From positions 194,427 through 258,426 of the forward strand of contig NZ_BAABRU010000004.1 of NCBI RefSeq assembly GCF_039545135.1: 64,000 bases of DNA, written 5' to 3'. This stretch comes from Herpetosiphon gulosus (GTDB lineage Bacteria; Chloroflexota; Chloroflexia; Chloroflexales; Herpetosiphonaceae). Shown one piece after another: positions 3,779-49,488 of this stretch; position 1 is the stretch's first letter, and every line of letters begins with the position of its first letter. The notes below the pieces were generated by a model. That model saw only the letters and a program-made list of their open reading frames with translations. It did no database searches and was not told the DNA's origin. Both the position numbers and the translations under genes were made by a program.

Positions 3779-4360
3779 ATGGCAGGAAAGAAAGCATTTG
3801 AGCCTCAACGGGTTCTCGAAAAAGCCATGAACGCCTTTTGGGAACGTGGTTACGAAGGGCTATCAATTGAAGATCTCGTCCACGTTACGGGAATCGGGCG
3901 CGGTAGTCTCTATGGAACGTTTGGCGATAAACATGCACTGTACCTAGCGGCTCTTAACCAGTATACTGCCGCTATTAAAGCCCAGACTACGGCTATTTTG
4001 GAGCAAACTGGCTCACTCCAAGTTGTATTAGGCCAGCTTTTCCAAGCCCAAGTTGATGCTTTGCTGCACGACCCAGCGCGGCGTGGATGTTTTTTGGTTA
4101 ATGCATCCTTAGAAATTGCTCCGCATGATCATGCCGTTAACGAGATTATCCAGTCAGCATTGAATGAGTTCGAAGAAGCACTCTATCGGCTGCTGATCAA
4201 AGCGCAGGTTGCGGGTGAACTCTCGTGGCAACACGATCCCCATCAATTAGCGCATTTCTTGGTAGCAACCTTTGTCAGCCTGCGCGTGCTGGCGCGGAGC
4301 CAGCAACAGCGGGGAATGTTCGACGATATCGTAAAAACAGCGTTATCGATTTTAAACTAA
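3779..4360 (+). CDS. TetR/AcrR family transcriptional regulator
   Basis: N-terminal HTH LSIEDLVHVTGIGRGSLYGTFGDKHALY. RBS AAGAGGAG sits upstream of the ATG at 3779. The track ORF starts earlier at 3701 but has no RBS. Confidence 0.85.
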   Translation: MAGKKAFEPQRVLEKAMNAFWERGYEGLSIEDLVHVTGIGRGSLYGTFGDKHALYLAALNQYTAAIKAQTTAILEQTGSLQVVLGQLFQAQVDALLHDPARRGCFLVNASLEIAPHDHAVNEIIQSALNEFEEALYRLLIKAQVAGELSWQHDPHQLAHFLVATFVSLRVLARSQQQRGMFDDIVKTALSILN

Positions 4361-9966: not shown

Positions 9967-10054
9967 CGAACCAGCCTGCTCTCGGTTAAAGTTGGCCCAT
10001 CGCTGTTAATTCGCAGCCTCGCAGTAGCGAGGCTGTTCTTTTTGGAGCAGAGTA

Positions 10055-11161
10055 ATGTCGATCGCATTTAACGACCTTGGGCGACATGTCGCCACTATGG
10101 CCGAGGAGATCGAAGCAGCCAGCACCCGGGTGTTGCGCAGCGGTTGGTTTGTTTTAGGTCCAGAAGTTCGCGCCTTTGAAGCAGAATGGGCAGAATATTG
10201 TGGCGCACGCCATTGCATTAGCCTAGCAACTGGCACTGATGCCTTGATTTTAGGCCTCCGTGCCTTGGGCTTGCAAGCTGGCGACGAAGTGTTGACCGTG
10301 GCCAATGCTGGCAGTTACACCACCTTCGCCACCCATACCGTTGGCGCAACCCCACGTTATGTCGATGTTGATTCAGCGAGTTATACGCTTGATCCCAGCC
10401 AATTGGCCGCCGCGATTACCCCACGCACCAAAGTGATTGTGCCGGTGCATTTGTATGGTCAGGTTGCTGATCTTTCGGCGATTTTGGCGATTGCCGCTGA
10501 CCATCAATTACCAGTGCTCGAAGATTGTGCTCAAGCCCACGGGGCACGCTACCAAGGCCAGCACGTCGGCACATTCGGCGCTTTAGCCACATTTTCGTTC
10601 TATCCAACCAAAAATTTGGGCGCGTTGGGCGATGGCGGGGCAATTATTACCAACGACGATGGCTTGGCCGCCCAAATCAAGCAATTGCGCACCTATGGCT
10701 GGGCCAATAAATATCAAGTAACCCTCGAAAAAGGCACCAACAGCCGTCTCGATGAACTTCAAGCAGCTATTTTGCGGGTCAAATTAGCTCATCTTGATGC
10801 CCAAAATAGCCGCCGTCAAGCGCTTGCTGCCCGTTATAACGCTGGCTTAGCCGCAACTCCGCTGCAATGCCCACAGCTCGATAATGCTCAGCATGTCCAG
10901 CATTTGTATGTGGTGCGGGTTGCCGCCGAACAACGCAATGCCCTGCGCCAACATTTGCAAGCAGCAGGCATCGGCAGCGACGTGCATTACCCAATCGCCG
11001 ACCATCAACAGCCAGCTTGGGCCGAGCGCTATCAGGATGTGCATTTGCCGATCACCGAAGCGCTGAGCAATGAAATTCTGTCGTTGCCATGCTACCCTGA
11101 GCTAAGCGATGCCGAAGTTGATCAGGTGATCGACTGCATTCAAGCTTTTTTTGCCGCTTAA
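10055..11161 (+). CDS. DegT/DnrJ/EryC1/StrS family PLP-dependent sugar aminotransferase
   Basis: Typical fold-type I aminotransferase motifs, including ...[22 protein letters not shown] (PLP lysine region). Confidence 0.85.
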
Positions 11162-11327
11162 TACCTCGTACCATGAATCAGGCAGCAGCCACCCAATCAT
11201 TCCCCCGCCTCGCTGCTGCCAAGCCTGCTGAGTTACTTTCGTTTAATCAGCAATCTGCCCGATTGACAAGCAACCCGCGCCTGAATATAGTTGACAGTCA
11301 GCAGCCTTCAAGCCTTGGGGTAAATGT

Positions 11328-13226
11328 ATGCAGCAAATTGAAACCTTATATCTGCCCAACTTAAAACGTAAAGATGATAAACAAGACCCGTATTTGGTTC
11401 AGCGTATTGATGATAACGAAGCAGATACTCCAACCTTAGTTCCTTTGACTCAACTCGATAGCCTCTCACGGGTCAATATTTTAGTTGGTACGAATAATTC
11501 AGGTAAAAGTAGATTTATGCGCTTGTTAACTGAAACAACCAATTTTTCAGTTCGATTAAGAGATGTTGATTTTATCAATCGTACTATAGGAAATGCTATT
11601 GATAAAATTATCAGTACTTATACTTTCATAGGACATACACAAATTAGCAAATATGATACTTCCTTCCTCACGAAATTAAAATCGAAACTGATAACTAAAA
11701 ATAATACAAATACAAGTACTAACTATCAAAATATTTTTGATGTATTTAATCATTTATCAGAATACAATTCAATATATGATCAACTTAAAGACATTAAAAA
11801 TATTTCAAAAGAAATAGTTGAAATTTTAAAATCTACTCAATTAAATCTAACAAAAAATATCTATATCCCAACTATCCGTGGCTTGCGACCCTTAAACAGC
11901 AACTATACTGATTTTTATAAGATGCAAACTATTCAAAGCTATTTTAAAGATGCTGAACATAAACCTGAAATTTTCACAGGTTTAGGGCTTTATCAAGAAC
12001 TACGCCATTATTTGCTTGGTAATAATGATCAGCGTACAAAAATTAGAAAATATCAAGAATTTATCTCGAATAGCCTGTTTGAAGGCAAAGAAGTTACGCT
12101 AATTCCAAGCGAAGAACAAAAGATTGTGGTGGTTAAAATCGGTAATGAGCTTGAACGGCCAATCCATGAGCTTGGCGATGGGATTCAATCAGCAATTATC
12201 TTGACTTTCTTGCCATTTGTAAGTCTTGAGAATTGCATTTTCTTTATCGAAGAACCAGAGCTTTTTCTACACCCCAGCATGCAGCGCAAAATTCTGGAGT
12301 TTTATCATTCTTTAGATCGCCACTTGTTCTTTATGACAACCCATTCTAATCATTTGCTAGATATTACGATTGATATTCCTGAAATTTCAATCTATAGCTT
12401 TCGAAAATTGCTTACCAGCAGCGACGATGACCAAATGCCACAATTTGTTGTTGAGAATGTTGATAACAATCAGAGCAGCTCCTTAGAATTATTGGGGGTA
12501 CGAAATTCATCAGTCTTGTTGGTTAATGCCACAATTTGGGTTGAGGGAATAACCGACCGTTGGTATTTGCGTGAAATGCTCCGAATGTATATGGAAACTT
12601 TGCCAAACCCAAAACCCAAGCTCGAAGAAGATATTCATTATGCTTTTGTCGAATATGGTGGCGATAATATTAACCATTTTTCATTCTTGGATATGGAAGA
12701 GCATCCTATTATCGTAGATCGTTTATGCGCCAAAGCAATTGTTATTATCGATCAAGATGATGAGCAGAAAAAATTAGATCGTAAGCAGCAACTTCAGGCT
12801 AAACTAGGCGATCGTCTAATCATTTTACCCTGTCGTGAAATTGAAAATAGCCTACCGCCAGAAGTTATTCGCTCAGTTGTAATTGAGTATGAAACAACTA
12901 AGCAAAACCCAAAACCCGAATTAAATTCTTTTATATATGCAGATTATCAAAATGAGCCATTAGGGAATTTTATTAAGGATCTTATAATTAAAGGAGCACA
13001 ATCTCGTAGAGGTTGTTATAGTAGTGGATCAGGAACTATTACTCAAAAACTAGATTTCTGCAAAAGAGCACTTAAGTATATTAATCCATTAACCGATGCA
13101 GAATTAGCAAAATTAGACACAGAGGAACGTCAATTGAGGCATCTGGAGTTATTTCAGGCACTACCAGAATCAACTCAACAGATAATTATAAAACTCTATG
13201 ACTTTATCAAAGCACGAAATATTTGA
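11328..13226 (+). CDS. OLD-family ATP-dependent nuclease (ABC-type ATPase + Toprim), standalone (class 1-like)
   Basis: Walker A VGTNNSGKS, ABC-like signature/Walker B region (ELGDGIQSAIILTF...IFFIEEPELFLHP), then Toprim-like motifs (IWVEGITDRW and a DxD in IVIIDQDDEQ). Gene GC is far below its neighbours (roughly 33% versus 55-60%). Confidence 0.65.
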   Translation: MQQIETLYLPNLKRKDDKQDPYLVQRIDDNEADTPTLVPLTQLDSLSRVNILVGTNNSGKSRFMRLLTETTNFSVRLRDVDFINRTIGNAIDKIISTYTFIGHTQISKYDTSFLTKLKSKLITKNNTNTSTNYQNIFDVFNHLSEYNSIYDQLKDIKNISKEIVEILKSTQLNLTKNIYIPTIRGLRPLNSNYTDFYKMQTIQSYFKDAEHKPEIFTGLGLYQELRHYLLGNNDQRTKIRKYQEFISNSLFEGKEVTLIPSEEQKIVVVKIGNELERPIHELGDGIQSAIILTFLPFVSLENCIFFIEEPELFLHPSMQRKILEFYHSLDRHLFFMTTHSNHLLDITIDIPEISIYSFRKLLTSSDDDQMPQFVVENVDNNQSSSLELLGVRNSSVLLVNATIWVEGITDRWYLREMLRMYMETLPNPKPKLEEDIHYAFVEYGGDNINHFSFLDMEEHPIIVDRLCAKAIVIIDQDDEQKKLDRKQQLQAKLGDRLIILPCREIENSLPPEVIRSVVIEYETTKQNPKPELNSFIYADYQNEPLGNFIKDLIIKGAQSRRGCYSSGSGTITQKLDFCKRALKYINPLTDAELAKLDTEERQLRHLELFQALPESTQQIIIKLYDFIKARNI

Positions 13227-19956: not shown

Positions 19957-20059
19957 GTTCTGCGATCCTTTGGCACGAAGGATTGATAGGACGTTTATGG
20001 CAAATACCACGAATGGTATGCGTAAAAATCAATAAAAATAGCGGTACGGAATGGTATCA

Positions 20060-20170
20060 CGTACAGCTAGGCACAAATCCAACCCATTTGCTCAAGACCT
20101 TGTACTTGCTCGCCGACGGCGGCGAGGCCAAGGCGTACAGCTAGGCACAAATCCAACCCATTTGCTCAAG
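20060..20170. CRISPR. Mini CRISPR-like array: two identical 37-nt direct repeats (CGTACAGCTAGGCACAAATCCAACCCATTTGCTCAAG) separated by a 37-nt GC-rich spacer
   Basis: Exact 37/37 repeat at 20060-20096 and 20134-20170 with a unique 37-nt spacer (ACCTTGTACTTGCTCGCCGACGGCGGCGAGGCCAAGG). A 228-nt AT-rich leader-like stretch (20171-20398) lies on the high-coordinate side. Orientation is unresolved. Confidence 0.45.
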
Positions 20171-20398
20171 TAGTCGAATGCAAGGTAGAGCGTTGCTAAA
20201 GAGCATTATTATCTCTAAATCTTTCTCTTATTAATAGTAAAACATTCGTAGCCGAATTTCAATAGATTTTTGGTCAAATTATTATCCAAATAATAAATCG
20301 TTAATAAAATTTGATTATCCCAAAGCCAATAACTATTTGTACTAGCATTTGATAAATAGCACAATAGTTCTGATTATTACTCATAAGGAGATCAATTC

Positions 20399-26096: not shown

Positions 26097-26855
26097 ATGA
26101 TCGATAATCGTCAGCGATTCAGCAATCGGGTGGCCGATTATGTACAGTTTCGCCCAAATTACCCTAGCGAAATATTCGTGCCCTTGCAACAACACCATGG
26201 CTTTGGCCAAAACTCAGTCGTGGCCGATATTGGAGCGGGCACGGGGATTTGGAGTGAGCAACTGCTCCAGCATGGGGCAACTGTCTATGCAATTGAACCC
26301 AACGCACCGATGCGTGAAGCCAGCTTGCAACTTACCGAGCGTTATCCCACATTTCAAGCTGTTGATGGCAGTGCCGAAACCACTGGTTTGGCCGATCAGA
26401 GCGTCAATTGGATCACGGCGGCTCAAGCATTTCACTGGTTCGAACCACAAGCAACCCGCCGCGAATGGCAACGAATTTTACGACCTGAGGGCTGGGTAGG
26501 CTTAATTTGGAACCAACGTTCGCTTGATGGCACAGCGTTTTTACAGCAATACGAAGCACTATTACACCAATTTGGCAGTGATTATGCCACCGTCAAACAT
26601 ACCAACATCGAACCGCAACGGATTGCCGATTTCTTTGGCAACCAACCAGCTTGCTACACCGCCCAAAACGCCCAATATTTTGATCAAGCTGGCTTGTTGG
26701 GTCGGGCATTTTCCTCGTCGTACACGCCCACGCCTGAACAACCCAATTATCAACTGCTACGCCAAGGCCTGATTGAGGCTTGGAAAGAGCATCAGGTTGC
26801 AGGCAAAGTGGCCTTTTTATACACAACCACGGTGTACGTCGGGCGGTTTAGCTAG
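26097..26855 (+). CDS. Class I SAM-dependent methyltransferase
   Basis: Motif I VADIGAGTGIWS, plus motif II/III spacing typical of the Methyltransf_11/25 family. Confidence 0.75.
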   Translation: MIDNRQRFSNRVADYVQFRPNYPSEIFVPLQQHHGFGQNSVVADIGAGTGIWSEQLLQHGATVYAIEPNAPMREASLQLTERYPTFQAVDGSAETTGLADQSVNWITAAQAFHWFEPQATRREWQRILRPEGWVGLIWNQRSLDGTAFLQQYEALLHQFGSDYATVKHTNIEPQRIADFFGNQPACYTAQNAQYFDQAGLLGRAFSSSYTPTPEQPNYQLLRQGLIEAWKEHQVAGKVAFLYTTTVYVGRFS

Positions 26856-26906
26856 ATTAACTGTAATATTGTTCCCTGTTCTTCTAGCCTACTACATATC
26901 CAAAAG

Positions 26907-26947
26907 CCCCTCGCCCGCCGCAGTGGGAGAGGGGTTGGGGGTGAGGG
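26907..26947. repeat. REP-like GC-rich palindromic unit, copy 2 (reverse orientation), between a convergent gene pair at the end of the cmr operon
   Basis: CCCCTCGCCCGCCGCAGTGGGAGAGGGGTTGGGGGTGAGGG is the reverse complement of the unit at 21134. Confidence 0.6.
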
Positions 26948-26962
26948 AATTCAACCAATCAG

Positions 26963-27352
26963 CTACAGTTTGGGAATCCGGCGAGTGCGGGCGACTTGAC
27001 GGATTGCATCCAAATTGCAAATCTCGCCTACCTCAAAAACGGTTGGAGTGGTATTAGGAATAGGGCGCATATTGATGATTGGCATAAAATAGCCGGAGCG
27101 CCCATGCAACTCAGCGATGACCGCCAAGGCCAATGGAGCCAAGCCTGGCGGATTGATAATAATTGGGATGGTTTGCCAATCGGCGGTTTTTAAGCCAACG
27201 CTTTCAATCAAATCGTAAGCGACCTCAGCCAAAGGCCGCATGCGGCTAACTTGGGTATCGACAAAGCGAATTTCGGGGGTTTCATCGACAAGCGCTACAA
27301 CTTGTGCAAACTGTTTATCAGTCAATGGATGGGCAAAGTTAATCAGAAGCAT
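26963..27352 (-). CDS. Small uncharacterised protein (129 aa), terminal gene of the cmr operon; possible type III accessory (Csx15/Csx16-size class; family not verified)
   Basis: Same strand, 34 nt downstream of the CARF-nuclease gene, and followed directly by the REP terminator element. No motif I can assign. Confidence 0.4.
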   Translation of the reverse strand: MLLINFAHPLTDKQFAQVVALVDETPEIRFVDTQVSRMRPLAEVAYDLIESVGLKTADWQTIPIIINPPGLAPLALAVIAELHGRSGYFMPIINMRPIPNTTPTVFEVGEICNLDAIRQVARTRRIPKL

Positions 27353-27386
27353 AGCTGTTCCTTTGTTAAATTCTACTCGAATAGTA

Positions 27387-28241
27387 TCACTTAATAATAT
27401 TTAATATTTTTGCTTTAGAATCTTCATCTATAGTAGAGCCATCAAAATTAACTGAAAGAATTTGTACATTTGATGCATCTGCAAGGGCTAATTGGGATTT
27501 CCCGGGGTTTTCCGTAATAATCAGTATTTTATTCGAATAAATACCTAAGTGTAAACCTGTTGTATTAAGTTGTCTTATACCTTCAATTTTCTTACCTTTT
27601 TCTCCAAATTTCACTTCAATAATTCCAAAATGATTACCCCTACGATAAATGACATCTAAATCTATCTGCCCTGAGAAAGACCGTACAGCTGATAAAATTT
27701 CGATATTATTTTCTTCCAATATATCTATAACTGCTTGTTCAAAAGGCTCTTTTGCTTGCTCGATAGACCAATTTCCTAAACCTAACTGAACATCTAGCCA
27801 ATCCTCTAGGGTTATACAAGGTGGTATAGAAGTTTCTTGTACTAGATGAAATTCAAAATCTTTCCAATCATATGTATACAATTTACTTTTGCCTGCTTCG
27901 CTCTCAAGATAAACCACAGGAAAGTTAAATTTCCGTGCCACTTGGGAAGCAGCAAATGACATCGGTTTTGTTCCACCAGTAACATTAAAGTAAAGCTCAT
28001 TACCTTCTTTCAGATTAGCAATACTTTCCTCTATCTGTCGGGTAATCTTTGGGATATCGTAAGAATCTGTACATATAATTTCAGTTTCAATATTTTTTGA
28101 CTTTAGAAGTGCTGCCGTATTATGAGCTTTTTTAACTGTTCCATCAGTATAAATAAGCAATGCTAAATCTGGTTCGAGGTGATAGATAGGAATAAGGTTC
28201 GGCAAAGGTTGTGCCCCAACTAGGGATAAAAGAATTTTCAT
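27387..28241 (-). CDS. CARF-domain protein with C-terminal PD-(D/E)xK-like nuclease motif (Card1/Can2-like cOA-activated effector)
   Basis: N-terminus MKILLSLVGAQPLPNLIPI is typical of CARF Rossmann starts in Card1/Can2/Csm6. C-terminus IDLDV-x12-IIEVKFGEK fits D...ExK spacing. RBS AAGGAG is present. The gene is AT-rich (about 33% GC) relative to neighbouring cmr genes. Confidence 0.6.
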   Translation of the reverse strand: MKILLSLVGAQPLPNLIPIYHLEPDLALLIYTDGTVKKAHNTAALLKSKNIETEIICTDSYDIPKITRQIEESIANLKEGNELYFNVTGGTKPMSFAASQVARKFNFPVVYLESEAGKSKLYTYDWKDFEFHLVQETSIPPCITLEDWLDVQLGLGNWSIEQAKEPFEQAVIDILEENNIEILSAVRSFSGQIDLDVIYRRGNHFGIIEVKFGEKGKKIEGIRQLNTTGLHLGIYSNKILIITENPGKSQLALADASNVQILSVNFDGSTIDEDSKAKILNIIK

Positions 28242-28307
28242 CGATGACTCCTTAAGTGAAAATAAAAATTAATGAAGAACCTTTTCAATTCATCATTAAA
28301 ATCGCTC

Positions 28308-29216
28308 TTATTTTTTATTCAAACGTTGAAGTAGGGCTTCGATTTGTTGCTCGCTCTTACACATTTCCCCAAGCTCCATCCGACCATAGCCACTTGATGT
28401 TTTGGCTCCAATGCCCATATGCGTAAGGCCATTAGCGAGCAAGGTGCGGGCGGCATTACACCAATTAGGGTCTCCGCTGAGTGCCACTAAATAGTGACCA
28501 GTTGCGCTCAGAAACGGAATAATCGTTGGACTATCCCAGTCGGCTGGCGGGGTTGAATTGCCTTGATAATACGTAGGATGATGTACAGTAATCACATCGG
28601 AATGTAAGGGACCGCCAGCTTGGGCCGTACCAGGAATATACAAGGCATCGTAAAAGCTGACACAGCCACTTAGCTCGGTTGTGCCAAATAATTCGCGATG
28701 AAATTCGCCGCCTTTGGCCCACTTTGGTGTAGCGCCATCTTCAGCTATGCCTTGACCAAGGCGTTGATGGGCAAAACTTGAGGCCAAGCCTTTCAAGCCA
28801 CTGCCTGGAATGTAAGGCAAGCCATAGGTGCGCTGCAAGGCGATTGAGTTTTCGAGCACACTCTCGGCTCCCAGCCCTACGACCATACGACCCTCGACTT
28901 TCGCCTTCAATAAACAAATATCGGGAATCTCCTTTAACGTGTTCAACCAACGGGTAAAAAATGCTCGATAGAGGTTTAATACTGGTTCTTTTCTGGCAAT
29001 CTGCGAACCTCTACAAAAATGTTCAGTTAATGGATTATCTGATGTGCATTCATCAGGTTTAACTGTAGATCCTCGGCCTAGTGCATTATTCGGACGTTGC
29101 TGATTTGCTTTATTTTCAGGATCGGGCTGTTGGGGCAAATAGCGGTCAAGCCATAAGCCTGCATGGGCTACGTTGTCTACTGTGACGTTATTTAGCCTAT
29201 CACGCCGACTATTCAT
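28308..29216 (-). CDS. cmr6: Cmr6 (type III-B Cas7-family RAMP)
   Basis: N-terminal AHAGLWLDRYL motif and G-rich loop GLPYIPGSGLKGLASS, both characteristic of Cmr6. Confidence 0.8.
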   Translation of the reverse strand: MNSRRDRLNNVTVDNVAHAGLWLDRYLPQQPDPENKANQQRPNNALGRGSTVKPDECTSDNPLTEHFCRGSQIARKEPVLNLYRAFFTRWLNTLKEIPDICLLKAKVEGRMVVGLGAESVLENSIALQRTYGLPYIPGSGLKGLASSFAHQRLGQGIAEDGATPKWAKGGEFHRELFGTTELSGCVSFYDALYIPGTAQAGGPLHSDVITVHHPTYYQGNSTPPADWDSPTIIPFLSATGHYLVALSGDPNWCNAARTLLANGLTHMGIGAKTSSGYGRMELGEMCKSEQQIEALLQRLNKK

Positions 29217-29230
29217 AAATACCTCGATGC

Positions 29231-29677
29231 TTATTGAATTGAATCAGTTGACTTAATATCAAGAATGCTTTGGGCAAAACGCTTGTACCAAAGTAATGCA
29301 TCTAAGATTTGCTGGGTACGATACATATAATCGGCTAGTTCTAATTTAGCGATGTTAGCAGCAAACTCTTGAGCTTTACAGGTAAAGCCAATGGTTATGG
29401 CAAGATGCTTTAGAAATAGGTTGATCTCTGGCTTGTCGCGTGATTGGGCGAATGCTAAAGCTTGAACTAAACCAGCACTTCTAATTAAGATTGGTAATTT
29501 ATGCGCCATCGAGCCATATACATTGCGACTGGTTTGGTGTTCTATGGCGATTTGCCTAACCTTTTCTCCCTTTGATCTAATATCTAACTCAGGATATTTT
29601 TGTAAAACTATTTCAATATGACCATGAGCCGATTTTGCATAATCTTGATCACGAGTTTGAAAGACTGGGTTACTCAT
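29231..29677 (-). CDS. cmr5: Cmr5 (type III-B small subunit, Cas11 family)
   Basis: 148-aa all-helical protein positioned between cmr4 and cmr6, with an LPILIRSAGLVQALAF core resembling Cmr5. Confidence 0.65.
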   Translation of the reverse strand: MSNPVFQTRDQDYAKSAHGHIEIVLQKYPELDIRSKGEKVRQIAIEHQTSRNVYGSMAHKLPILIRSAGLVQALAFAQSRDKPEINLFLKHLAITIGFTCKAQEFAANIAKLELADYMYRTQQILDALLWYKRFAQSILDIKSTDSIQ

Positions 29678-29687
29678 TATGCTGCTC

Positions 29688-30569
29688 CTATTTCACAATC
29701 ACGCGACAAATTCCGCGCCCGACGGTTGCCTTGCCTCCAAGCTGAATTGGTTTTTGCCACAGTCGGGGTAGCTCGGCATTGATGCTTTCTCCTAAGTCTG
29801 TTTTTGAGGCTGGTGGAGCAATCAACATCAAGCCAGTCAAAATCGATTCAGCAGGTAAGGCTTCTTCATACCAAAGTTGGCCATCAGCAACTGTTTTGGT
29901 TTCATCGTTGAGCCGAATGCGGGCGGTTATTTCGGTGGCAGTATTCAAAAGAAAACTAAACACATCATCATTGACGATGCAGAAACGCTCAACAAACATC
30001 GTTTGCCAGTCTGGTGAATCATCAAAAATGCGCGCTTTGAGCCAATCAGCCCATTGGGTCACTAGCTCAGCTTGATCCGATTGAGATTCAAAATCCAAAT
30101 CTTCTAAATAAATGTCCTTGTGCTTTTCTGATTTTGGTAAGTTTGATTTAAGTGCTGATTTTGTAGCAACAAGACATTGATCGCCATCAGGATTTTTGAT
30201 CCAGCTTGGTGGGATGTTTTCAGCCACAAGATTTTTGATTTCGCGGGCAAGGCGATTGAGAATGTAGGGCGAGGTAACCCATGCGAAGGTGCCATACAAA
30301 CTGCGCACCGGCATGCACAACAAGCGCAGATCAGAAAATTGCACAAAGCCTGCATTACCAGTGGCGTTATCTGATGCTGTTCCAAAGATTTCATCTTTAC
30401 GAGCGCCATTGTAACTATCGCGCAATGGGCCTTTGAGCGATGAGCCAGGCAAATAGGGCAAATTGGTGGCTTTTTCGCGGGCAATCGGCAAATCGATAAC
30501 TCCAGCGCCTTGGCCAGTGCCAGCATGAAGTGGTGAAAGTGCATGGACAAAAACGAGTTTGGTGGTCAT
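29688..30569 (-). CDS. cmr4: Cmr4 (type III-B Cas7 backbone RAMP)
   Basis: VHALSPLHAGTGQGAGVIDLPIARE...LPYLPGSSLKGPLRD G-rich loop and Asp-containing catalytic region typical of Cmr4. Confidence 0.85.
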   Translation of the reverse strand: MTTKLVFVHALSPLHAGTGQGAGVIDLPIAREKATNLPYLPGSSLKGPLRDSYNGARKDEIFGTASDNATGNAGFVQFSDLRLLCMPVRSLYGTFAWVTSPYILNRLAREIKNLVAENIPPSWIKNPDGDQCLVATKSALKSNLPKSEKHKDIYLEDLDFESQSDQAELVTQWADWLKARIFDDSPDWQTMFVERFCIVNDDVFSFLLNTATEITARIRLNDETKTVADGQLWYEEALPAESILTGLMLIAPPASKTDLGESINAELPRLWQKPIQLGGKATVGRGICRVIVK

Positions 30570-30639
30570 TATCGTAGCTCCTTCGCAAGATACGCTAAAA
30601 ATGCTTTGAGAACAGTATTTTTTACCTAGTAACAGTAGA

Positions 30640-32121
30640 TTATTTCGGCATTTTTTCCTTAAGATAGGCTAAAAATGCTTCAAGGATATTCCCTTCTACA
30701 GATATTGAATTTATATTAAGAACTTCATCAGCTCTCAATAAAAACCTAAGATCCTCTGGTTTCGGAGATATAGGGTGGACACTAGCCTTCAGTGATAACT
30801 TCATTTTTGGAGATAATTCGGTTCCTGATAAAATAAATGCTAAGCCAATAAGGTCTCCATTTGCACATTGGAAGGTTTTTAAGATAAGTGGGCTGGCTAA
30901 ACGCTCATTATCTTTTGTTGAATCATTGGGATTTACTAATCCAAGAGTTGTAGGACGAGGATCTAAATCTTTCCGATTAGATCCATATCTATTACCTTTA
31001 AACTGAAAAATGATTGGTAATCCAAACTGAGCACGAGGGAATGCCTTGATTATCTTATACTGCGGACTTGCTTGAACATTATCTGGATTATGATGCTTAA
31101 GATGTTGTTTTGTAATTCTACGAATCTGATTTGGTTCAGGCCAAAGACTTGTTCCATTAGTATTTTTTGCTTGCCGAAAATATTTTAATTTTTCTATCAA
31201 ATCCCTCCACATTCCAAATAAACCTTGTTTTCCTGTTTTATAAAAGATCTTAAATCGATTACTATTACTTATATCTCCTAAAATTGGTAGATCAGGATGA
31301 AAATAAGTGTTTTTATAGTATTTTGTATAATTTCCTAACAGCCAAGACTTAAAATTGTTGGCATTTTTCGGATGTTCTTTATTATCGCATCGAGTAACAG
31401 AACCAAAACCTCTTCTTGTTCTACCTCCAATGCCCCCAAAAGTTTCCCAAGCCCAGAGTGTAGCATCAACTTCAATTTTAATGCCTTTGTGATAAGTAAT
31501 CTTTAGGTTAAATATGACCTCGTTACGAATGGTTTTGATGGGGGTTTGCATTCCATATTTTTTTACGGTTTCCCTGTCAGGTTTAATTGGGAAAGATGCA
31601 TATTCATGAGCAACTTCAGATAGCCCATATGCATTAAATTTCCCTTTTGTCATTCTAATTTCATAGGGTTTCTGCTCCTCCCCATCAGAAATTATCTCAA
31701 CTGAGATTTGAATAGGAATGATATTTTTTAATTTATTATTTTCTTGATTTTGATCATCTACTAGATTACTAGAATCTTGATTCACCTTTTTCTTTTCAGA
31801 AGAGGACGAAGTGCTGGCACTACCCCAAATCTCGGCTTCTCGTTGCCGCATATCATCAAGCCGTTGAGAATCGGTAAAATTTGGATCGGTACTTCCACCA
31901 CGGATAGCACGCCACCAAAAACGCAGTTGGCCGCGAATGCCACTGGCCCGAATTCGCGTGATTGGGTCATTCACCCCAGCTTCAACCCCGCCACCAAACA
32001 ATGGGGTGATCAGCTTGTAGCTGCGGGTTTCGGTGATATAGGTTTGCCCGCCAATGGTAAATTCATTTGGTGCTTGATACTCTATAGGATCTGGTGCAGA
32101 AATAGTTGGTTTACGATTCAT
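30640..32121 (-). CDS. cmr1: Cmr1-like RAMP (Cas7 family, 493 aa)
   Basis: LITPLFGGG...IRASGIRGQLRFWWRA motifs are typical of Cmr1. It overlaps the cmr3 stop by 4 nt (translational coupling). Lower GC than cas10/cmr3. Confidence 0.65.
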   Translation of the reverse strand: MNRKPTISAPDPIEYQAPNEFTIGGQTYITETRSYKLITPLFGGGVEAGVNDPITRIRASGIRGQLRFWWRAIRGGSTDPNFTDSQRLDDMRQREAEIWGSASTSSSSEKKKVNQDSSNLVDDQNQENNKLKNIIPIQISVEIISDGEEQKPYEIRMTKGKFNAYGLSEVAHEYASFPIKPDRETVKKYGMQTPIKTIRNEVIFNLKITYHKGIKIEVDATLWAWETFGGIGGRTRRGFGSVTRCDNKEHPKNANNFKSWLLGNYTKYYKNTYFHPDLPILGDISNSNRFKIFYKTGKQGLFGMWRDLIEKLKYFRQAKNTNGTSLWPEPNQIRRITKQHLKHHNPDNVQASPQYKIIKAFPRAQFGLPIIFQFKGNRYGSNRKDLDPRPTTLGLVNPNDSTKDNERLASPLILKTFQCANGDLIGLAFILSGTELSPKMKLSLKASVHPISPKPEDLRFLLRADEVLNINSISVEGNILEAFLAYLKEKMPK

Positions 32122-33584
32122 TTGGTTACTCCCTTAATTTCAGCGAACGTCCCATCCCAAGCTCCGAGCACTGCTAACCCAAAGCCATCGCGGCGATCTT
32201 GCTCTGCATCGCTTATGCACTGCATCCAAAACTTGGTTATCCAAACTTCAATCGCAGGTTTTTCGCCTACTAGCGAGAGGAACAAGACCGTACCAGCAGG
32301 AGCTAGGCGGCGAGTTGGTTTAGGCTTATGAATTGCTAAATCCCAGCCTGAAATAGCTTGAGCACGCTTGATCGCGATTGCTTCAAGCGTTGGCTGCACC
32401 CCATCAACCTCGCGGCATAGCCAAGTTGGGCGATAGCCCTTTTCAAACATCGCTGGGGTGAGCAAAATCACGCGGCATGCTTGATCTTTTACGATTGCAT
32501 CAACGATAACTTGATCGCATGCTGGCAATGGATGCTCAGTTGGCTCCCAACGAGCCAAACGGCGCTCGCCGCCCAAGGGTGCAATGCTTGGTTGTGGAAT
32601 GCTTAAACCAGTTGTATCGCGGTAATCAGTGCTCACATATAAGGCCAAACGCTGCGCTTTGGCCAATTGTTGCTCGTTGGCTTGGGTAAAGCTTAGACCA
32701 CGAGTTTGAAACAAATGCCCATCTTCAGCTTGTTGAGTATTAGGCTGAATTTCAACATGCGTCCGTTGATCAATTGGCAAGCCTTTAATTCCCAAGTCAG
32801 TACTTTTTTGCACTAAGGAAGTTTGGGTTTGATCAATCAATGCTTCTGGATCTTGCAACCATTGCAGAAAATGTTCCCAATACCAAAATTGCGGTTGCTC
32901 TTTGGCGGGCTTACGCCGATCAACCTCGCCTGAACCAACCAAGCCAAGTTCATTAAAATCGCTGACAAACCCCGCAGGAGCCAGAATTGGCACTAAGCGG
33001 CGGAGCCAAGGCACAGATGTTGTGGGTTCTGCTGGTTGATCGTCGGATGCTTTTGCTTCGGTTTTTGATTCAGGCTCAAACAACAGTGCATCGGCAGGTG
33101 CAGGGCATAAGAATCTCAGGCTATCTTTGGTTTCGTTTGGTTCTAGCAATTCAACTAAGACTGGCCCATAAATTTGAATTGGCTGTAATTTATTTCCCTG
33201 CGCTTGATTAAACTTAGGATCTTTGTTAAATCGAAGGTTTGAAGCATAGGCAGTTTGGGAGCGAATAACCCCAGCCAAAACTGATGGCGGCGGGAACGAC
33301 TGGGTATAGGCACGTGCGCCAGGCGTATTGTTAAATGGTCGGCCATCGCGCACAATCAAGGGGTCACGCGGCTCGATGAGCCACGCTTGCTGAGTTGTAG
33401 TTTCAGCTTTGGTTGGTTGATATGAGTTTGCCTCAACTTGAATTGGTTTAGCAGGCTCACTTATTAATTCAGCTGCTTGATCGCTGCCTAGCGCTGCTGA
33501 AGTTTGCTCAACGAATTGAGTATTGGTGCTGTTTTGCTTTTTGGTTTGTTGCTTTTGCTTAGAACGTTCGCGGCGTGTAGTCAT
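32118..33584 (-). CDS. cmr3: Cmr3 (type III-B Cas5-family subunit) with low-complexity N-terminal extension
   Basis: LIEPRDPLIVRDGRPF is the hallmark Cmr3 N-terminal motif. Start assigned to the ATG at 33584 with a GGAGG RBS. The track ORF from 33674 would overlap cas10. Confidence 0.8.
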   Translation of the reverse strand: MTTRRERSKQKQQTKKQNSTNTQFVEQTSAALGSDQAAELISEPAKPIQVEANSYQPTKAETTTQQAWLIEPRDPLIVRDGRPFNNTPGARAYTQSFPPPSVLAGVIRSQTAYASNLRFNKDPKFNQAQGNKLQPIQIYGPVLVELLEPNETKDSLRFLCPAPADALLFEPESKTEAKASDDQPAEPTTSVPWLRRLVPILAPAGFVSDFNELGLVGSGEVDRRKPAKEQPQFWYWEHFLQWLQDPEALIDQTQTSLVQKSTDLGIKGLPIDQRTHVEIQPNTQQAEDGHLFQTRGLSFTQANEQQLAKAQRLALYVSTDYRDTTGLSIPQPSIAPLGGERRLARWEPTEHPLPACDQVIVDAIVKDQACRVILLTPAMFEKGYRPTWLCREVDGVQPTLEAIAIKRAQAISGWDLAIHKPKPTRRLAPAGTVLFLSLVGEKPAIEVWITKFWMQCISDAEQDRRDGFGLAVLGAWDGTFAEIKGVTK

Positions 33585-33609
33585 AGCAATCCTCCGAAAA
33601 CTTGTTGGA

Positions 33610-35421
33610 TTAATTTCCATTGGCGAGCTTTTGTGCTTCAGCAATAAATTCGGCAATAATGACTTCATCAGCAAATTGTTGAATAATGGAATGAGGCTTG
33701 GTAGTTTGATCTAATAACAAATCATCAATCATTTTGAGTAACTGCTCGGCAATATCGTCCTCAACTTTTTTACCGTTACTCGTATACTTGCGCTCAATGA
33801 TGCGTTTGGCTTCGGCGCGGAGAATACTGGCGGGCAAGTCTTTTAATCGAATAGATAAATCATGCAGTTCAAAGGCAAAACCAAGGGGAATTTGATCATA
33901 TTGATGTAACTCGATTAGGCGCGTCAGCCGCTCATATAACGAAAACTGACCTTCAGGTTTAGCCCACGATCCGGCGATAATTCGATCTGCACCGCCACGT
34001 TTGCTGAGGTTGATTGCCAACGCATTTTTGCCTTTTATGCCTTTGGCTTGCTGCTCAGCTTTACGCGCTAAATCTAAGGCATCGGATAATGGTTCGAGGT
34101 GATGGACAATTGCAATGCCGACCGAGAGTGATACCATTGGGTCAACAAGCGCCTGTTTAAAAGCAGTGGCTAAATCAGCGGCACAATCAAAGACTGTGGC
34201 TAAACGTTTATTATTACCTTCTTGAATTACGTGACTACTCGTTAGTGGTAAAAATGCTAAAACATCATCCCCGCCCGAATAGACTAAGGCTCCTTGATGG
34301 TTTTCGACGATCGACTTAACATTTCCCGCAAATCTAGTTAATTTTTCGGAAATACCTTGATGTTCATCCATCCCATGGGCGGTATTAATAAATCTTCCCA
34401 TAGCATCGCCATCAGCATGCAGAATGGCATAGTAGGGAATGGGAATTGTAGTATCTAGAAATGGTTTTAAGAAATCTTGCAGATATTTTTGAGCCTTTTT
34501 AAGATCTTCTCCTACTAAGGCATCATTGAAACGCTCGGCAAAGAGAAGTGAGCCGTCATAATACTCAAAAATATCATGGTATATCGGTGTTTTTTCGTTT
34601 TGAATATATTCTTTGGCCGATTCGAGTAATTTTAATGCACAAATATAATCCTTCCATAACCTAGTAACAGCTTTAGGATTTTTCTCACTTTGATCTAGTA
34701 AGGTTAGATAATTAAAAACAGGTGTCGCAGCTATATGTGAGGTGCTTGGAAACCTTGAATCGACACCTTTTTGACCATGCCGTTTGAGAATATCAACGCC
34801 TGATAAATGCTCACCAATATTGATTCCATACTCGCGGTACATGGTTAATTCTTGGCCTTTTAGCTCACGGTTATCAATCACCGATTCACGTTCGCCATCG
34901 ATTGAAGATTTTGGAGCGTTTGTGCCCCACGTCACCGCGCTAAAATTACGGGTATTTTTGCGAGCTGCCATCAGGTGTTCAAGCTGCTCGCGGGTTGCAC
35001 AATACACATCATCACTTGCTAAATGCAATGCAACCCAACTAAATTCAATCAAAGCAGCAATTTGAGCTTTGGCTCGGGTTTGATCAAACACACCAGTTAC
35101 TTTTGCAAACGCGCCATCGCGAATCTCATTTACACGAGTATCTAAGGCTTGTTTGGCGGCATCGGCAATCATTTTGACATCGCCCTCTACCTTGGCCAAA
35201 ATTTTGTTGGGCACATTGAAAGCGCTGTTTGGCGCTAAATCTTGGGCTGGATCGGTTGGATAGGGAAAGATCAAATTACCTTTAGCTTGATAAACGCTTT
35301 TTGCCACCGCTTTGGACAACTCGCTGAGTAGCCACGAACCAAACCAGAGGTCGCGGGTGCGGCGAGCGCTGGCGATGAAATCTTGAACTGGGCCAATCGC
35401 GATTAGGATTAAATGAGACAT
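33610..35421 (-). CDS. cas10: Cas10/Cmr2 (type III large subunit), apparently HD-less, with intact GGDD cyclase motif
   Basis: N-terminus MSHLILIAIGPVQDFIASARRTRDLWFGSWLLSEL (Cas10 palm-domain start). GGDD motif in LVYSGGDDVLAFLP. Length is only 603 aa and I found no HD motif. RBS GGGGAG is present. Confidence 0.85.
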   Translation of the reverse strand: MSHLILIAIGPVQDFIASARRTRDLWFGSWLLSELSKAVAKSVYQAKGNLIFPYPTDPAQDLAPNSAFNVPNKILAKVEGDVKMIADAAKQALDTRVNEIRDGAFAKVTGVFDQTRAKAQIAALIEFSWVALHLASDDVYCATREQLEHLMAARKNTRNFSAVTWGTNAPKSSIDGERESVIDNRELKGQELTMYREYGINIGEHLSGVDILKRHGQKGVDSRFPSTSHIAATPVFNYLTLLDQSEKNPKAVTRLWKDYICALKLLESAKEYIQNEKTPIYHDIFEYYDGSLLFAERFNDALVGEDLKKAQKYLQDFLKPFLDTTIPIPYYAILHADGDAMGRFINTAHGMDEHQGISEKLTRFAGNVKSIVENHQGALVYSGGDDVLAFLPLTSSHVIQEGNNKRLATVFDCAADLATAFKQALVDPMVSLSVGIAIVHHLEPLSDALDLARKAEQQAKGIKGKNALAINLSKRGGADRIIAGSWAKPEGQFSLYERLTRLIELHQYDQIPLGFAFELHDLSIRLKDLPASILRAEAKRIIERKYTSNGKKVEDDIAEQLLKMIDDLLLDQTTKPHSIIQQFADEVIIAEFIAEAQKLANGN

Positions 35422-35620
35422 TACAACTCCCCAAAGAACTAACTGGCAACAGAGAGTGGTATAGTTGGAGTGGCTTGGTGGAATGCTAGGAGTTAAGTCT
35501 TATCCTACCAAGGATTGTCAAGCACAGCCTGTACTAGGTATAGATGCAATTTGGCGTGATTTTTTTGCAGCCAATTTGCGCATGTTTGCTTAATTGTTGA
35601 TTAATGGTTGCCACTACCCT

Positions 35621-35650
35621 TTGACTTTTGGCGTATCAATCGTTGATAAT
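35621..35650 (+). promoter_or_regulatory. Sigma70-like promoter (TTGACT - 17/18 nt - GATAAT) upstream of the Ser/Thr kinase gene, in the divergent intergenic region shared with cas10
   Basis: Hexamers read directly, about 35 nt upstream of the GTG start at 35686. Confidence 0.3.
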
Positions 35651-35685
35651 ACAGGCTACGCAATCATGTAGCGGCGGGGGAAACT

Positions 35686-37197
35686 GTGTTTGCTGATTTG
35701 CTGCCTGATGGCACGATCCTTCAAGGACAACACGATCAATATCGGATTCTCGGCATCATCGGGCGCGGGGGCATGGGCGCGGTCTATCGCGGCGAACGCC
35801 TCAGCGATGGCTCAACCTGGGCGGTTAAAGAGATGCGCCCACCAGCCGAGGCCGCTCCCGAGGAAATTGCCGAAAATCGCAAGCTCTTTGACCAAGAAGC
35901 GCAATTATTGCAAACGCTCGATCATCCCAACTTGCCCAAAGTCGTCGATTCATTTGAGCAGGCTGGTCGCCCCACGCTGGTGATGGAATTTGTCCAAGGC
36001 AAAACGCTCGAAGATAAGCAGCGTGAAATGAATGCGCCATTTTTTCAACGTGATGTGCTAAATTGGGGCGTGCAGATTGCGCGGGTGCTCAATTATTTGC
36101 ATAGCCAAAATCCCCCAATTATTTTTCGCGATATGAAGCCGCCGAATGTGATGCTTACGCCTGAAGGCATTATTAAGCTGATCGATTTTGGGGTGGCGCG
36201 AACCTACAAAACCAATAAAAGTAAAGATACAGTGGCCATGGGTTCGGCTGGCTATGCGCCGCCTGAGCAATATGGTAAGGGTCAAACTGATGCGCGAGCC
36301 GATATTTATGCCTTGGGCGCAACCTTGCTGCATATGTTGACCAATCTGCCGCCTGTGCCGCTGCAAACGCCCAAAGATGGCTCGCTGATTAAACATAATC
36401 AATCGGTTACGCCGGAGATGGAGCAGGTGATTATTCGATCGATGGCGATGGATCGCGAGAAGCGCTTTCAGACGATGGCTTCGTTTGAGCAAGCATTGTT
36501 GGCGGTTGATCGCGGGGTGATTGTGCCCGATAAGCGTGATGATCCGACCATGTTGCCCACGCCAGCCCCTGTCTTTAACAATCCGAACCCAAATCCTGCG
36601 CCAGCATGGGGCAATCCCAATCCAAATCCTGCGCCAGCATGGGGTAATCCGAACCCAAATCCTGCGCCAGCATGGGGTAATCCTAATCCGCCACAGTATC
36701 AGCAGCCAATGCCACAACCTGTGCCACAGCCAGCCCCACCATCGTGGGCACCGCCAGTCCAGACCCCAGCGTGGTCGCCACCGCCACAGGCCAATGGCCC
36801 AATTTGTGATCAGTGTGGCCGTATGAATAAACCTAATGCGCGGTTTTGTGCTGGTTGTGGCGCGGCAATCAAACGGGCTGTGCCAAAGCTAGTGATTACC
36901 TCGCCCCGTGCGGTTTGGGAATTGGCATTAACCCACTTTCCTTGCCGCATTGGGCGGCGTGATCCAGCACAAAATCATCATCCTGAGATCGATTTGGCTG
37001 AGCATGATCGAGGCGTGGCCTCGCGTCGCCATGCTGTCATCGAACAACAGGGTGATCATCATTTATTAATTGATTTGGGCAGCATCAATGGCACAAGCAT
37101 CAATGGTGTGCCGATGACTGCCTATCAACCGCACCATCTGCGGCCTGGTGACCGTATTCGGATTGGTGATGTTGAGATGGTTTTTAGTATCGAGTAA
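35686..37197 (+). CDS. Ser/Thr protein kinase with Pro-rich tandem repeats, zinc ribbon and C-terminal FHA domain
   Basis: Kinase motifs (GRGGMGAVYRG, FRDMKPPNVML, DFG, APE). Three NPNPNPAPAWG repeats. CDQCG...CAGCG zinc ribbon. FHA-like end (FPCRIGRR...SRRHAVIE...GSINGTSINGV). Confidence 0.85.
   Translation: MFADLLPDGTILQGQHDQYRILGIIGRGGMGAVYRGERLSDGSTWAVKEMRPPAEAAPEEIAENRKLFDQEAQLLQTLDHPNLPKVVDSFEQAGRPTLVMEFVQGKTLEDKQREMNAPFFQRDVLNWGVQIARVLNYLHSQNPPIIFRDMKPPNVMLTPEGIIKLIDFGVARTYKTNKSKDTVAMGSAGYAPPEQYGKGQTDARADIYALGATLLHMLTNLPPVPLQTPKDGSLIKHNQSVTPEMEQVIIRSMAMDREKRFQTMASFEQALLAVDRGVIVPDKRDDPTMLPTPAPVFNNPNPNPAPAWGNPNPNPAPAWGNPNPNPAPAWGNPNPPQYQQPMPQPVPQPAPPSWAPPVQTPAWSPPPQANGPICDQCGRMNKPNARFCAGCGAAIKRAVPKLVITSPRAVWELALTHFPCRIGRRDPAQNHHPEIDLAEHDRGVASRRHAVIEQQGDHHLLIDLGSINGTSINGVPMTAYQPHHLRPGDRIRIGDVEMVFSIE
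36580..36692 (+). repeat. Three tandem 33-nt repeats (AATCCGAACCCAAATCCTGCGCCAGCATGGGGY) inside the kinase gene, encoding NPNPNPAPAWG x3
   Basis: Near-identical units at 36580, 36613 and 36646, plus a partial fourth. Confidence 0.8.
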
Positions 37198-47553: not shown

Positions 47554-47629
47554 TGGCTCCCTGACTAGGACTCGAACCTAGGACATGCTGATTAACAGTC
47601 AACCGCTCTACCAACTGAGCTATCAGGGA
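47554..47629 (-). tRNA. tRNA-Asn (anticodon GTT), CCA encoded
   Basis: Reverse complement folds as a cloverleaf: acceptor TCCCTGA/TCAGGGA, D-arm GCTC-AGTTGGTA-GAGC, anticodon loop CTGTTAA, T-arm CTAGG-TTCGAGT-CCTAG, discriminator G, then CCA. Confidence 0.85.
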
Positions 47630-47650
47630 TTATGCATTTGTAAAAAGAAG

Positions 47651-47695
47651 TGGCTCCCTGACTAGGACTCGAACCTAGGACCCATTGATTAACAG
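47651..47695 (-). repeat. 45-nt duplicate of the tRNA-Asn 3' end (from anticodon loop to CCA, 2-4 mismatches in the variable loop): candidate att site of the integrated element
   Basis: TGGCTCCCTGACTAGGACTCGAACCTAGGAC..TGATTAACAG matches 47554-47598 of the intact tRNA. It lacks the 5' half, so it is not a second gene. Confidence 0.6.
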
Positions 47696-48624: not shown

Positions 48625-49488
48625 ATGATTACGCAATGGATCGAAGAATATTTGTCCGCCAAAATCGCCGAACGCCGCAGCCCTGCTACCATCACTACCT
48701 ACCGTATCCGGTTAGGACGGTTTGGTGCTTGGGTCGTTGAACAACCCAATCAGGTGCTCACTCGTGCGTTATTGCGGGCCTACAGTGCGTACTTAGCCCA
48801 ACAAAACATCAGCATTGCCAGTCACTATAGTTATCTCAACGATGCCCTCGTCCTCGTGCGCTGGCTTGCTGAAGAAGGTTATATTCAACCCATTAAGACC
48901 GATAAACTCAAACCCCGATTACCCAAGCGCTTGCCTGCCCACTACACGATGGATCAAATTAAGCGCCTCCTGCTGGTTGCCGAGCTTCGTGAAAAAGCCA
49001 TGCTCTGTGTCTTACTGGATACCGGCGTTCGGGTCAGTGAACTGATTCAACTCCGCCGGACTAGCTTTGACTCGGAAGGCTGCGCCATGATTCTTGGCAA
49101 AGGCAGCAAGGATCGGTATATCTGGATTTCATCCGTGACCCAAGAAGTCCTTCGAACCTACATCGCCAGTCGGACGGATACGAACCCTGCGCTGTTTGTC
49201 AGCCATCGCCAGCAAAAAACGCTGACGATTAGCGGCGTACACCAGAGCTTCGATCGCTTAGCCTCCGACGCGGAGATCCGCAACGATGTGCGGCGTTTGA
49301 TTCACTCCTTTCGTGCCACCTTCGCCCGCGAACTGATCAAGAAAGGCCTTGATGCAGAAAGTCTACGGGTGTTGATGGGCCATGAAACGATTCAAATGTC
49401 TCTGCACTATGCACAACTCTCATCCCATGAGGCGACCCAAAATCGGCAAGGCGTGAACCTCCTCGAGAAGGTGGAGTCATGCTTATAA
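48625..49488 (+). CDS. Tyrosine recombinase/integrase (XerC/D-like)
   Basis: N-terminal SAM-like domain. Catalytic-domain motifs DTGVRVSEL (R), KGSKDR (K), HSFRATFA (HxxR), LMGHETIQMSLHYAQLS (catalytic Y). Confidence 0.85.
   Translation: MITQWIEEYLSAKIAERRSPATITTYRIRLGRFGAWVVEQPNQVLTRALLRAYSAYLAQQNISIASHYSYLNDALVLVRWLAEEGYIQPIKTDKLKPRLPKRLPAHYTMDQIKRLLLVAELREKAMLCVLLDTGVRVSELIQLRRTSFDSEGCAMILGKGSKDRYIWISSVTQEVLRTYIASRTDTNPALFVSHRQQKTLTISGVHQSFDRLASDAEIRNDVRRLIHSFRATFARELIKKGLDAESLRVLMGHETIQMSLHYAQLSSHEATQNRQGVNLLEKVESCL

Follow-up and report, generated by a model that had tools for sequence, protein, structure and literature searches.

The 64,000-nt stretch of Herpetosiphon gulosus DNA analyzed here (NZ_BAABRU010000004.1, positions 194,427 to 258,426; hereafter the window) carries at 26963-35421 an intact, conventional type III-B (Cmr) effector operon of the CRISPR kind, every part of which falls in a family that has already been described. 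Its eight open reading frames (ORFs), all on the minus strand, are cas10/cmr2, cmr3, cmr1, cmr4, cmr5, cmr6, the gene of a CARF-domain nuclease and csx15. We conclude that the operon is very probably a functional, array-less cassette that defends by cyclic tetra-adenylate (cA4) signaling.

The operon proteins were searched with Pfam, NCBIfam (at its curated cut-offs) and PADLOC models, and all six Cmr proteins passed the NCBIfam cut-offs. Cas10/Cmr2 (33610-35421, 603 aa) scored 175.2 bits against TIGR02577 (cut-off 79.4) and matched Pfam Cmr2_N and Cas10-Cmr2_palm2. Cmr3 (32118-33584, 488 aa) reached 103.9 against TIGR01888 (cut-off 100.4) and 1.6e-77 against Pfam Cas_Cmr3, and Cmr1 (30640-32121), a 493-aa repeat-associated mysterious protein (RAMP) with a low-complexity insert, reached 64 against TIGR01894 (cut-off 28.65) and 1.4e-30 against PADLOC Cmr1. 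The backbone RAMP protein Cmr4 (29688-30569, 293 aa; TIGR02580, 248.6 against 87), the small subunit Cmr5 (29231-29677, 148 aa; TIGR01881, 36.4 against 27.9; Pfam Cas_Cmr5, 1.2e-19) and the RAMP protein Cmr6 (28308-29216, 302 aa; TIGR01898, 129.4 against 51.1) complete the effector complex. Downstream lie the Can2/Card1-like effector (27387-28241, 284 aa; PADLOC CARF4--CARF_PDDEXK, 1.2e-108 over the full length; Pfam CARF_Card1, 50 bits against 24.6) and Csx15 (26963-27352, 129 aa; NCBIfam NF040560, 138.5 bits against a cut-off of 35; PADLOC Csx15, 1.8e-38). These results bear out the complete Cmr operon and the gene order given in an earlier note on this DNA, and they give a family to the terminal 129-aa ORF, which that note had called unknown.

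Two further details of the layout could be refined. The earlier note had described tight spacing with 4-nt overlaps; the genes are indeed separated by short gaps of 10-70 nt, but only one junction, cmr3/cmr1, has a 4-nt overlap. The listed cmr3 ORF reaches back to a TTG at 33674 and so overlaps cas10, whereas translation most likely begins at the ATG at 33584, which is preceded by GGAGG 7 nt upstream and lies 25 nt after cas10; cmr3 orthologues begin 26-35 nt after cas10, which supports this choice. As previously noted, a hairpin ends the operon: a GC-rich minus-strand element at 26908-26933, 30 nt past the csx15 stop and followed by CUUUUGG, is a candidate terminator. The window has only one copy of it, and its folding does not surpass that of shuffled sequences (z = -0.26); the label of a repetitive extragenic palindromic (REP) element is therefore unsupported and was rejected. 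In Cmr4, which is 49% identical to Thermus thermophilus Cmr4, Asp26 sits in the sequence GVIDLPI, presumably at the position of the Asp that cleaves target RNA in Pyrococcus furiosus Cmr4.

Cas10 lacks an HD domain and keeps its cyclase motifs, as had been proposed. The protein begins with MSHLILIAIGPVQDFI, and Pfam Cmr2_N covers aa 4-100 and palm2 aa 330-469. No HD-domain model of Pfam, NCBIfam or PADLOC matched Cas10, including its N-terminus, where such a domain would have changed the interpretation of the operon, and the family models align from residue 2-4. A separate HD ORF was not found upstream of cas10 either; the next gene there encodes a Ser/Thr kinase-FHA protein, starts at 35686 and is divergent, and thus leaves no room for one. 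The motif HADGD is found at 335 and GGDD at 383-386, the latter aligned with the GGDD of T. thermophilus Cmr2, and the protein has only three cysteines. The absence of the HD domain had been presented as an unusual feature. However, HD domains occur in only 39% of 1,113 type III Cas10 proteins (PMC11229360), and the biochemically studied Cmr2 of T. thermophilus is HD-less as well; an HD-less Cas10 is therefore the majority state and not unusual. More than 2,500 homologues of ~600 aa have the same Pfam architecture, and the H. gulosus protein itself is 100% identical to an NCBI entry named type III-B Cas10/Cmr2 [Herpetosiphon gulosus]. The methyltransferase encoded next to the operon is a RefSeq protein of H. 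gulosus, too.

The 284-aa protein combines a CARF domain (~aa 1-125, with the motif N86-x-TGGTK92) and a PD-(D/E)xK nuclease domain (E168, D196, E209-x-K211 and Q224). In an alignment of 31 sequences (A1; 30 homologues of 284-320 aa plus the H. gulosus protein), N86-x-TGGTK92, E168, D196 and K211 are invariant, E209 is present in at least 90% of the sequences, and Q224 is invariant or near-invariant. Moreover, an AlphaFold2 model of the protein (predicted local distance difference test score, pLDDT, 94.4; predicted TM-score, pTM, 0.88) was compared with solved structures using Foldseek. The top matches in the PDB, which extend over both domains, were Can2 (8bao, 7bdv with cA4, and 8q3z), Cdn1, VC1899, Card1 (6wxw) and Can1, with a best E value of 5e-16; TM-scores on the query ranged from 0.66 to 0.75. 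The structure prediction called for earlier thus recovers both the CARF and the PD-(D/E)xK folds, and at the level of the modeled fold it confirms that the protein is a Card1/Can2-like CARF nuclease.

The protein shares with Can2 and Card1 (7bdv, 8bao, 8q3z, 6wxw) the same two-domain fold, the GGTK motif of the CARF domain and the E...D...ExK motif of the nuclease. The characterized members, however, have 366-437 aa, and identity to them is only 13-19%. With 284 aa, the H. gulosus protein is ~80-150 residues shorter and falls outside their size range; by our estimate, its CARF domain and nuclease core are separated by ~75 residues fewer. It is not alone in this. The best 150 matches to it are nearly all full-length and have 285-320 aa, and the compact subfamily (PADLOC PDLC01887) comprises at least 307 clusters at 50% identity (E <= 1e-30). 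Given its length and that of the compact subfamily, the sequence comparison places the protein in a distinct branch of the Can2/Card1 family. No solved structure of less than 300 aa that would represent this branch was found among the PDB sequence and Foldseek matches. Homology, together with the associations with Csx15 and Csx1 described below, suggests that the protein would be activated by cA4 as a homodimer.

The last gene of the operon encodes Csx15, a family that was characterized only in 2026. Csx15 is a CARF-superfamily dimer, and cA4 is bound between dimers stacked head to tail (Chi et al. 2026, PMC13148439). In some members the action is limited to sequestering cA4, while others, such as CliCsx15, hydrolyze it slowly, and this catalysis needs H13 and H90; expression of Csx15 neutralizes cA4-dependent immunity in vivo, and both proteins studied, PfCsx15 and CliCsx15, are cA4-specific (PMC13148439). 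The match of the H. gulosus protein to NF040560 spans profile positions 1-125 of 125, and in the PDB its sequence matches csx15 9teu (6.5e-14) and, within the Schlafen fusion CbCash (9ylu), the Csx15 domain (8e-16). Aligned with the 9teu chain, it keeps H8, H83, F106 and R118/R122/R125. It thus shares a full-length family match with CliCsx15 (Chlorobaculum limnaeum) and PfCsx15 (Pseudomonas fluorescens), and has equivalents of H13/H11, H90/H82 and Y113/F106 as well as the three C-terminal arginines, whereas S9 of PfCsx15 is replaced by Ala. CliCsx15 is likewise encoded in a type III locus, but that locus is III-A, and the one described here is III-B with a Can2-like effector. By analogy with CliCsx15, we predict that the H. 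gulosus protein is a cA4-binding sponge or a slow ring nuclease.

These components suggest the following circuit. CRISPR RNAs (crRNAs) from arrays elsewhere in the genome, processed by a Cas6 that would also be encoded elsewhere, would be loaded into the complex of Cmr1-6 and Cas10. Pairing with a complementary foreign transcript would turn on the palm/cyclase site (GGDD) of Cas10, the architecture of which is evident and the activity of which is predicted from it. As this Cas10 has no HD nuclease, a nucleotide second messenger would be its sole output. The messenger, most likely cA4 as judged by homology, would bind the CARF dimer of the Can2-like protein and activate the PD-(D/E)xK nuclease; the activated nuclease, if its substrates resemble those of its homologues, would degrade nucleic acids non-specifically and lead to growth arrest or abortive infection. 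Cmr4 would cut the bound target RNA and so end synthesis of the messenger, and Csx15, if it behaves like CliCsx15, would bind cA4 in head-to-tail filaments and slowly hydrolyze it, which would set a threshold for activation and reset the system. Defense by cyclic oligoadenylate (cOA) signaling to the CARF nuclease rather than by a Cas10 DNase, as put forward earlier, is consistent with the HD-less Cas10, its GGDD motif and the Can2-like partner.

The choice of cA4 as the most likely messenger draws on several family associations. The solved Can2 structures among the top fold matches are cA4 complexes, and Csx1 and Can1/Can2/Card1 are families defined as cA4-activated (PMC11229360). The cA4 specificity of both studied Csx15 proteins points in the same direction, as does the report that the effectors with which extrinsic ring nucleases co-occur are exclusively cA4-dependent (PMC12409355). 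In H. llansteffanensis the orthologous operon has an extra gene (L004 9636-10949) between cmr6 and the Can2-like gene, and this gene encodes a 437-aa Csx1 (CARF-HEPN) protein; that locus therefore has two CARF effectors plus Csx15, and the Csx1 gene also argues for cA4. Alternatively, Cas10 might make cA3, cA6 or S-adenosylmethionine-AMP (SAM-AMP), with the CARF nuclease and Csx15 responding to that molecule. Such signaling has precedents: the HD-less III-B system of Vibrio metoecus uses cA3 with NucC (PMC8682760), and the likewise HD-less III-B system of Bacteroides fragilis, as it is cited in PMC11229360, uses SAM-AMP. Furthermore, the structures that were matched include no characterized member of the compact Can2-like subfamily, and homology is what suggests cA4 in the present case. 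However, a NucC, CorA, NrN or Csm6-type partner was not found in the window, and the associations listed above all favor cA4. We therefore regard a different messenger as very improbable.

The operon occupies a fixed site in the genus. Several relatives have it flanked by the same methyltransferase and kinase genes, and in no fewer than four other Herpetosiphon genomes or contigs it is found intact and in synteny. Relatives that carry it include GCA_020161265.1 (Cas10 79% identical), H. llansteffanensis (63% by tblastn) and the H. aurantiacus-like contigs L007-L009, in which Cas10 has 616 aa. The 3.69-Mb contig L006 has an empty site (10001-12366, compared with 26097-37197 of the window), where the methyltransferase gene is followed by the kinase gene after 108 nt. 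At this fixed locus of Herpetosiphon, the cmr-can2-csx15 operon is thus polymorphic for presence or absence, as a unit of 8.7 kb. The cassette extends from approximately 26856 to 35586, with junctions placed by eye, between the methyltransferase gene (which ends at 26855) and the kinase-FHA gene (which starts at 35686); it includes ~165 nt of operon-specific 5' region (35422-35586), and its GC content is 39-47% against ~52% in the flanks. A short GATTAA is present near both junctions and may be there by chance.

Within the cassette the genes differ widely in divergence. Identity to the nearest relative is 79% for Cas10, 74% for Cmr3, 64% for Cmr1, 92% for Cmr4, 53% for Cmr5, 77% for Cmr6, 89% for the Can2-like protein and 98% for Csx15, and the flanking proteins are 95-99% identical in amino acid sequence. 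At ~28.9-29.4 kb and 31.4-31.9 kb, no DNA-level alignment with L002, L004 or L008 was possible. This mosaic, fast-diverging pattern is typical of defense loci, and the sequence comparison suggests diversifying selection or allelic replacement inside the fixed cassette.

Guide RNAs for the complex are most likely supplied in trans, as in Thermus. Neither Cas6, Cas1, Cas2 nor any other Cas protein was found by Pfam and NCBIfam searches among the 45 window ORFs of at least 100 aa that lie outside the operon, in line with the earlier statement that the 64 kb lack cas1, cas2 and cas6. In the relatives, likewise, no cas6, cas1, cas2 or array was found within 10 kb of the operon. On one side the operon is accompanied by genes for Lon, an ABC exporter, YifB, CobB/Sir2, an acyltransferase, a CoA-disulfide reductase, a cyclic di-GMP-binding protein, a BatA/VWA protein and the methyltransferase, and on the other by genes for the kinase-FHA protein, a hydrolase, a U32 peptidase, superoxide dismutase and an EVE-domain protein. 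The absence of adjacent cas6 and adaptation genes had been considered unusual; the Cmr operon of T. thermophilus lacks them in the same way among the annotated genes within 9 kb. In H. aurantiacus there are 11 CRISPR arrays as well as a cas cluster on a plasmid (PMC3368417), and the number of cas genes in H. llansteffanensis is 33 (PMC6210107). With a genus so rich in other CRISPR loci, supply of crRNA in trans is the most economical reading. A lead on an RT-Cas1 in Herpetosiphon was dropped: the reverse transcriptase near a CRISPR locus of H. aurantiacus belongs to a group II intron.

Several observations weigh against a functional cA4-signaling cassette. The 64-kb window contains no crRNA source, Cas6 or array for the operon. 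The divergence of the Cmr subunits (53-92% identity) relative to the flanks (95-99%) may also fit relaxed constraint. As to the messenger, cA4 is assigned as ligand through family associations only; the organism and product of 9arw (612 aa), the chain nearest to Cas10 by sequence among solved structures in the PDB, were not found in the literature, so that homology may leave room for a product other than a cOA; and position 7 of Csx15 is Ala where PfCsx15 has the conserved Ser9.

The first two of these observations would also suit a decaying or repurposed orphan, with no array, no Cas6 and no guides, that no longer acts as an immune effector. That array, cas6 and adaptation genes are missing near the operon in every genome examined, that L006 lacks the cassette, and that cas10 and cmr1 are split in L009, a metagenomic copy, fit this view. 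Decay is nevertheless at odds with the intact state of all eight ORFs, both here and in at least four relatives, and with the conservation of GGDD, of Cmr4 D26, of the nuclease E-D-ExK residues and of H8 and H83 in Csx15. The Thermus Cmr system, which has the same arrangement, is active with crRNAs made in trans; the genus has many arrays and cas genes, and fast divergence is common in defense genes. An orphan therefore appears improbable, and we favor an active effector cassette that works with guides made elsewhere.

The only CRISPR-like feature of the window is a unit of a 37-nt repeat, a 37-nt spacer and a 37-nt repeat at 20060-20170, 6.8 kb from csx15. A search for arrays with the 37-nt repeat had been proposed earlier, and the unit might be the operon's own one-spacer array, supplying crRNA without Cas6. 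Its exact 37/37/37-nt geometry, of which no instance is expected by chance, its position beside an AT-rich stretch that might be a leader, and the fact that H. gulosus differs from its relatives by exactly one repeat-plus-spacer unit all speak for such an array. However, four relatives have a single copy of the 37-mer in the same intergenic position: H. aurantiacus DSM 785 (L001 6582-6618), L005 (2953-2989), which is a 604-kb contig with the operon on it, L007 and L008 (both ~4037-4073). A 34/37 version is found in L006 (3672-4039 compared), the relative without the cmr operon. Since the 37-mer is single-copy in these four relatives and a 34/37 version of it is present in an operon-less one, it is not the array of this operon, and this candidate was rejected.

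Wider searches agree with the rejection. A search of 185,579 species genomes found the exact 37-mer at no place beyond the single-copy syntenic sites, and a metagenome collection had no other copy of the 22-nt core. An Rfam scan of the 20060-20170 region, CRISPR-DR families included, gave no match. In separate searches, operon DNA and the 37-nt repeat had no relevant match in a plasmid collection in which the H. aurantiacus plasmid pHAU01 is not included as NC_009973.1, and exact matching of the 37-nt spacer or its 22-nt core to viral contigs revealed no protospacer. Six housekeeping genes, moreover, separate the unit from the operon. That the unit serves as the operon's own array is thus scarcely credible, and supply in trans remains our preferred explanation for the guides.

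How the unit arose is a separate matter. H. gulosus has one extra 74-nt unit, which consists of a novel 37-nt spacer with an internal hairpin, ACCTTGTACTTGCTCGCCGACGGCGGCGAGGCCAAGG, and a duplicated 37-nt segment; the site reads ...GGTATCA|CGTACAGC.... This arrangement is possibly the signature of Cas1-Cas2 integration at a non-CRISPR site, that is, of the birth of an array. Ectopic integration was reported by Nivala et al. 2018, as that work is cited in PMC6698737. Contraction of an array in all the other relatives is a less likely origin of the 74-nt difference. The intergenic region in which the unit lies (20011-20398, from a 118-aa ORF without family match to cobB) is near-identical among genomes whose flanking regions are otherwise ~91-95% identical (DNA, alignment A4). 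Conservation remains good even in L006, which is more distant, and Rfam gives no match; a small RNA or a conserved regulatory element may be encoded there.

Taken together, these observations can be joined in a broader picture, in which a self-contained module of Cmr, compact Can2 and Csx15 works on the guides of other systems, the 74-nt insertion records the birth of an array by off-target Cas1-Cas2 activity, and the compact Can2 branch, ~75 residues shorter between its domains, could differ mechanistically from its characterized relatives. As a whole, we consider this combination conceivable but doubtful.

The window has further features. A 46-nt direct repeat of the 3' part of tRNA-Asn (47554-47629) is found at 47650-47695, and this tRNA was the only match in an Rfam scan of the whole window. 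Past it lie genes for a tyrosine integrase (48625-49488), a DUF3987 protein, a Toprim/zinc-ribbon primase and a ParM-like actin, and further along for a replication-relaxation protein (57555-58490) and a RiboL-PSP HEPN protein (58520-59521), with a GC content of 32-37% at 58-62 kb. The region from 47554 to beyond 59521 looks like a mobile element integrated at the tRNA gene, which reaches or passes the end of the window. At 11328-13226, where GC is 41-46%, a 632-aa AAA_15/AAA_21 ATPase matches models of the defense ATPases AriA, GajA and OLD (best E = 9e-20) and may be a single-gene or partial defense system. An HTH-WYL regulator at 6394-7386 matches the PADLOC model 'CRISPR-associated WYL' (7e-59); it lies ~20 kb from the operon, and nothing in the evidence connects it with the Cmr cassette. 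The kinase-FHA gene next to the cassette contains in-frame tandem repeats of 33 nt and 30 nt (36579-36786), which are rich in Pro/Asn/Ala/Trp and fall in the linker between the kinase and FHA domains; among relatives, no part of this gene is less conserved than this region.

The value of the operon as a discovery is small, since its Cas10 is already named at NCBI, its architecture is that of the T. thermophilus Cmr operon and its accessory families are catalogued. It has modest value as a clean natural case in which a complete predicted cA4 circuit, composed of a sensor and cyclase, a nuclease effector and an off-switch, is held in one operon. With a cassette that is polymorphic at a fixed chromosomal site and Cmr subunits that diverge fast between close relatives, Herpetosiphon is usable for studying the turnover of type III effector cassettes. 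Confirmation as ectopic spacer integration would make the 74-nt repeat-plus-spacer insertion more interesting.

Among known systems, the closest parallel is the Cmr operon of T. thermophilus HB8 (pTT27, TTHB160-165), which has the identical order cas10-cmr3-cmr1-cmr4-cmr5-cmr6. Its Cmr2, with 584 aa and without an HD domain, is collinear with the H. gulosus Cas10 from residue 1 and 37% identical over the full length. In T. thermophilus, immunity relies on ancillary nucleases activated by cOA, and the gene content suggests immunity of the same type in H. gulosus. The two operons differ in that the ancillary effectors of T. thermophilus are encoded outside the Cmr operon, where no Can2-like gene or csx15 follows cmr6, and in that the Thermus operon is plasmid-borne whereas that of H. 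gulosus is a chromosomal cassette.

The III-Bv system (CRISPR3) of Synechocystis sp. PCC 6803 is reportedly also a Cmr-type locus without cas6, as here, and its crRNA is said to be matured by the host RNase E. That locus, however, is said to have an adjacent array of its own, whereas none is adjacent to the H. gulosus operon, and the Cmr4 proteins are only 28.5% identical.

In Vibrio metoecus, a III-B system with an HD-less Cas10 is wholly reliant on a cOA-activated ancillary nuclease (PMC8682760), which is the mode of action that we propose for H. gulosus. The V. metoecus system is prophage-encoded and signals with cA3 to NucC, whereas the H. gulosus cassette encodes cA4-type partners, namely a CARF nuclease and Csx15.

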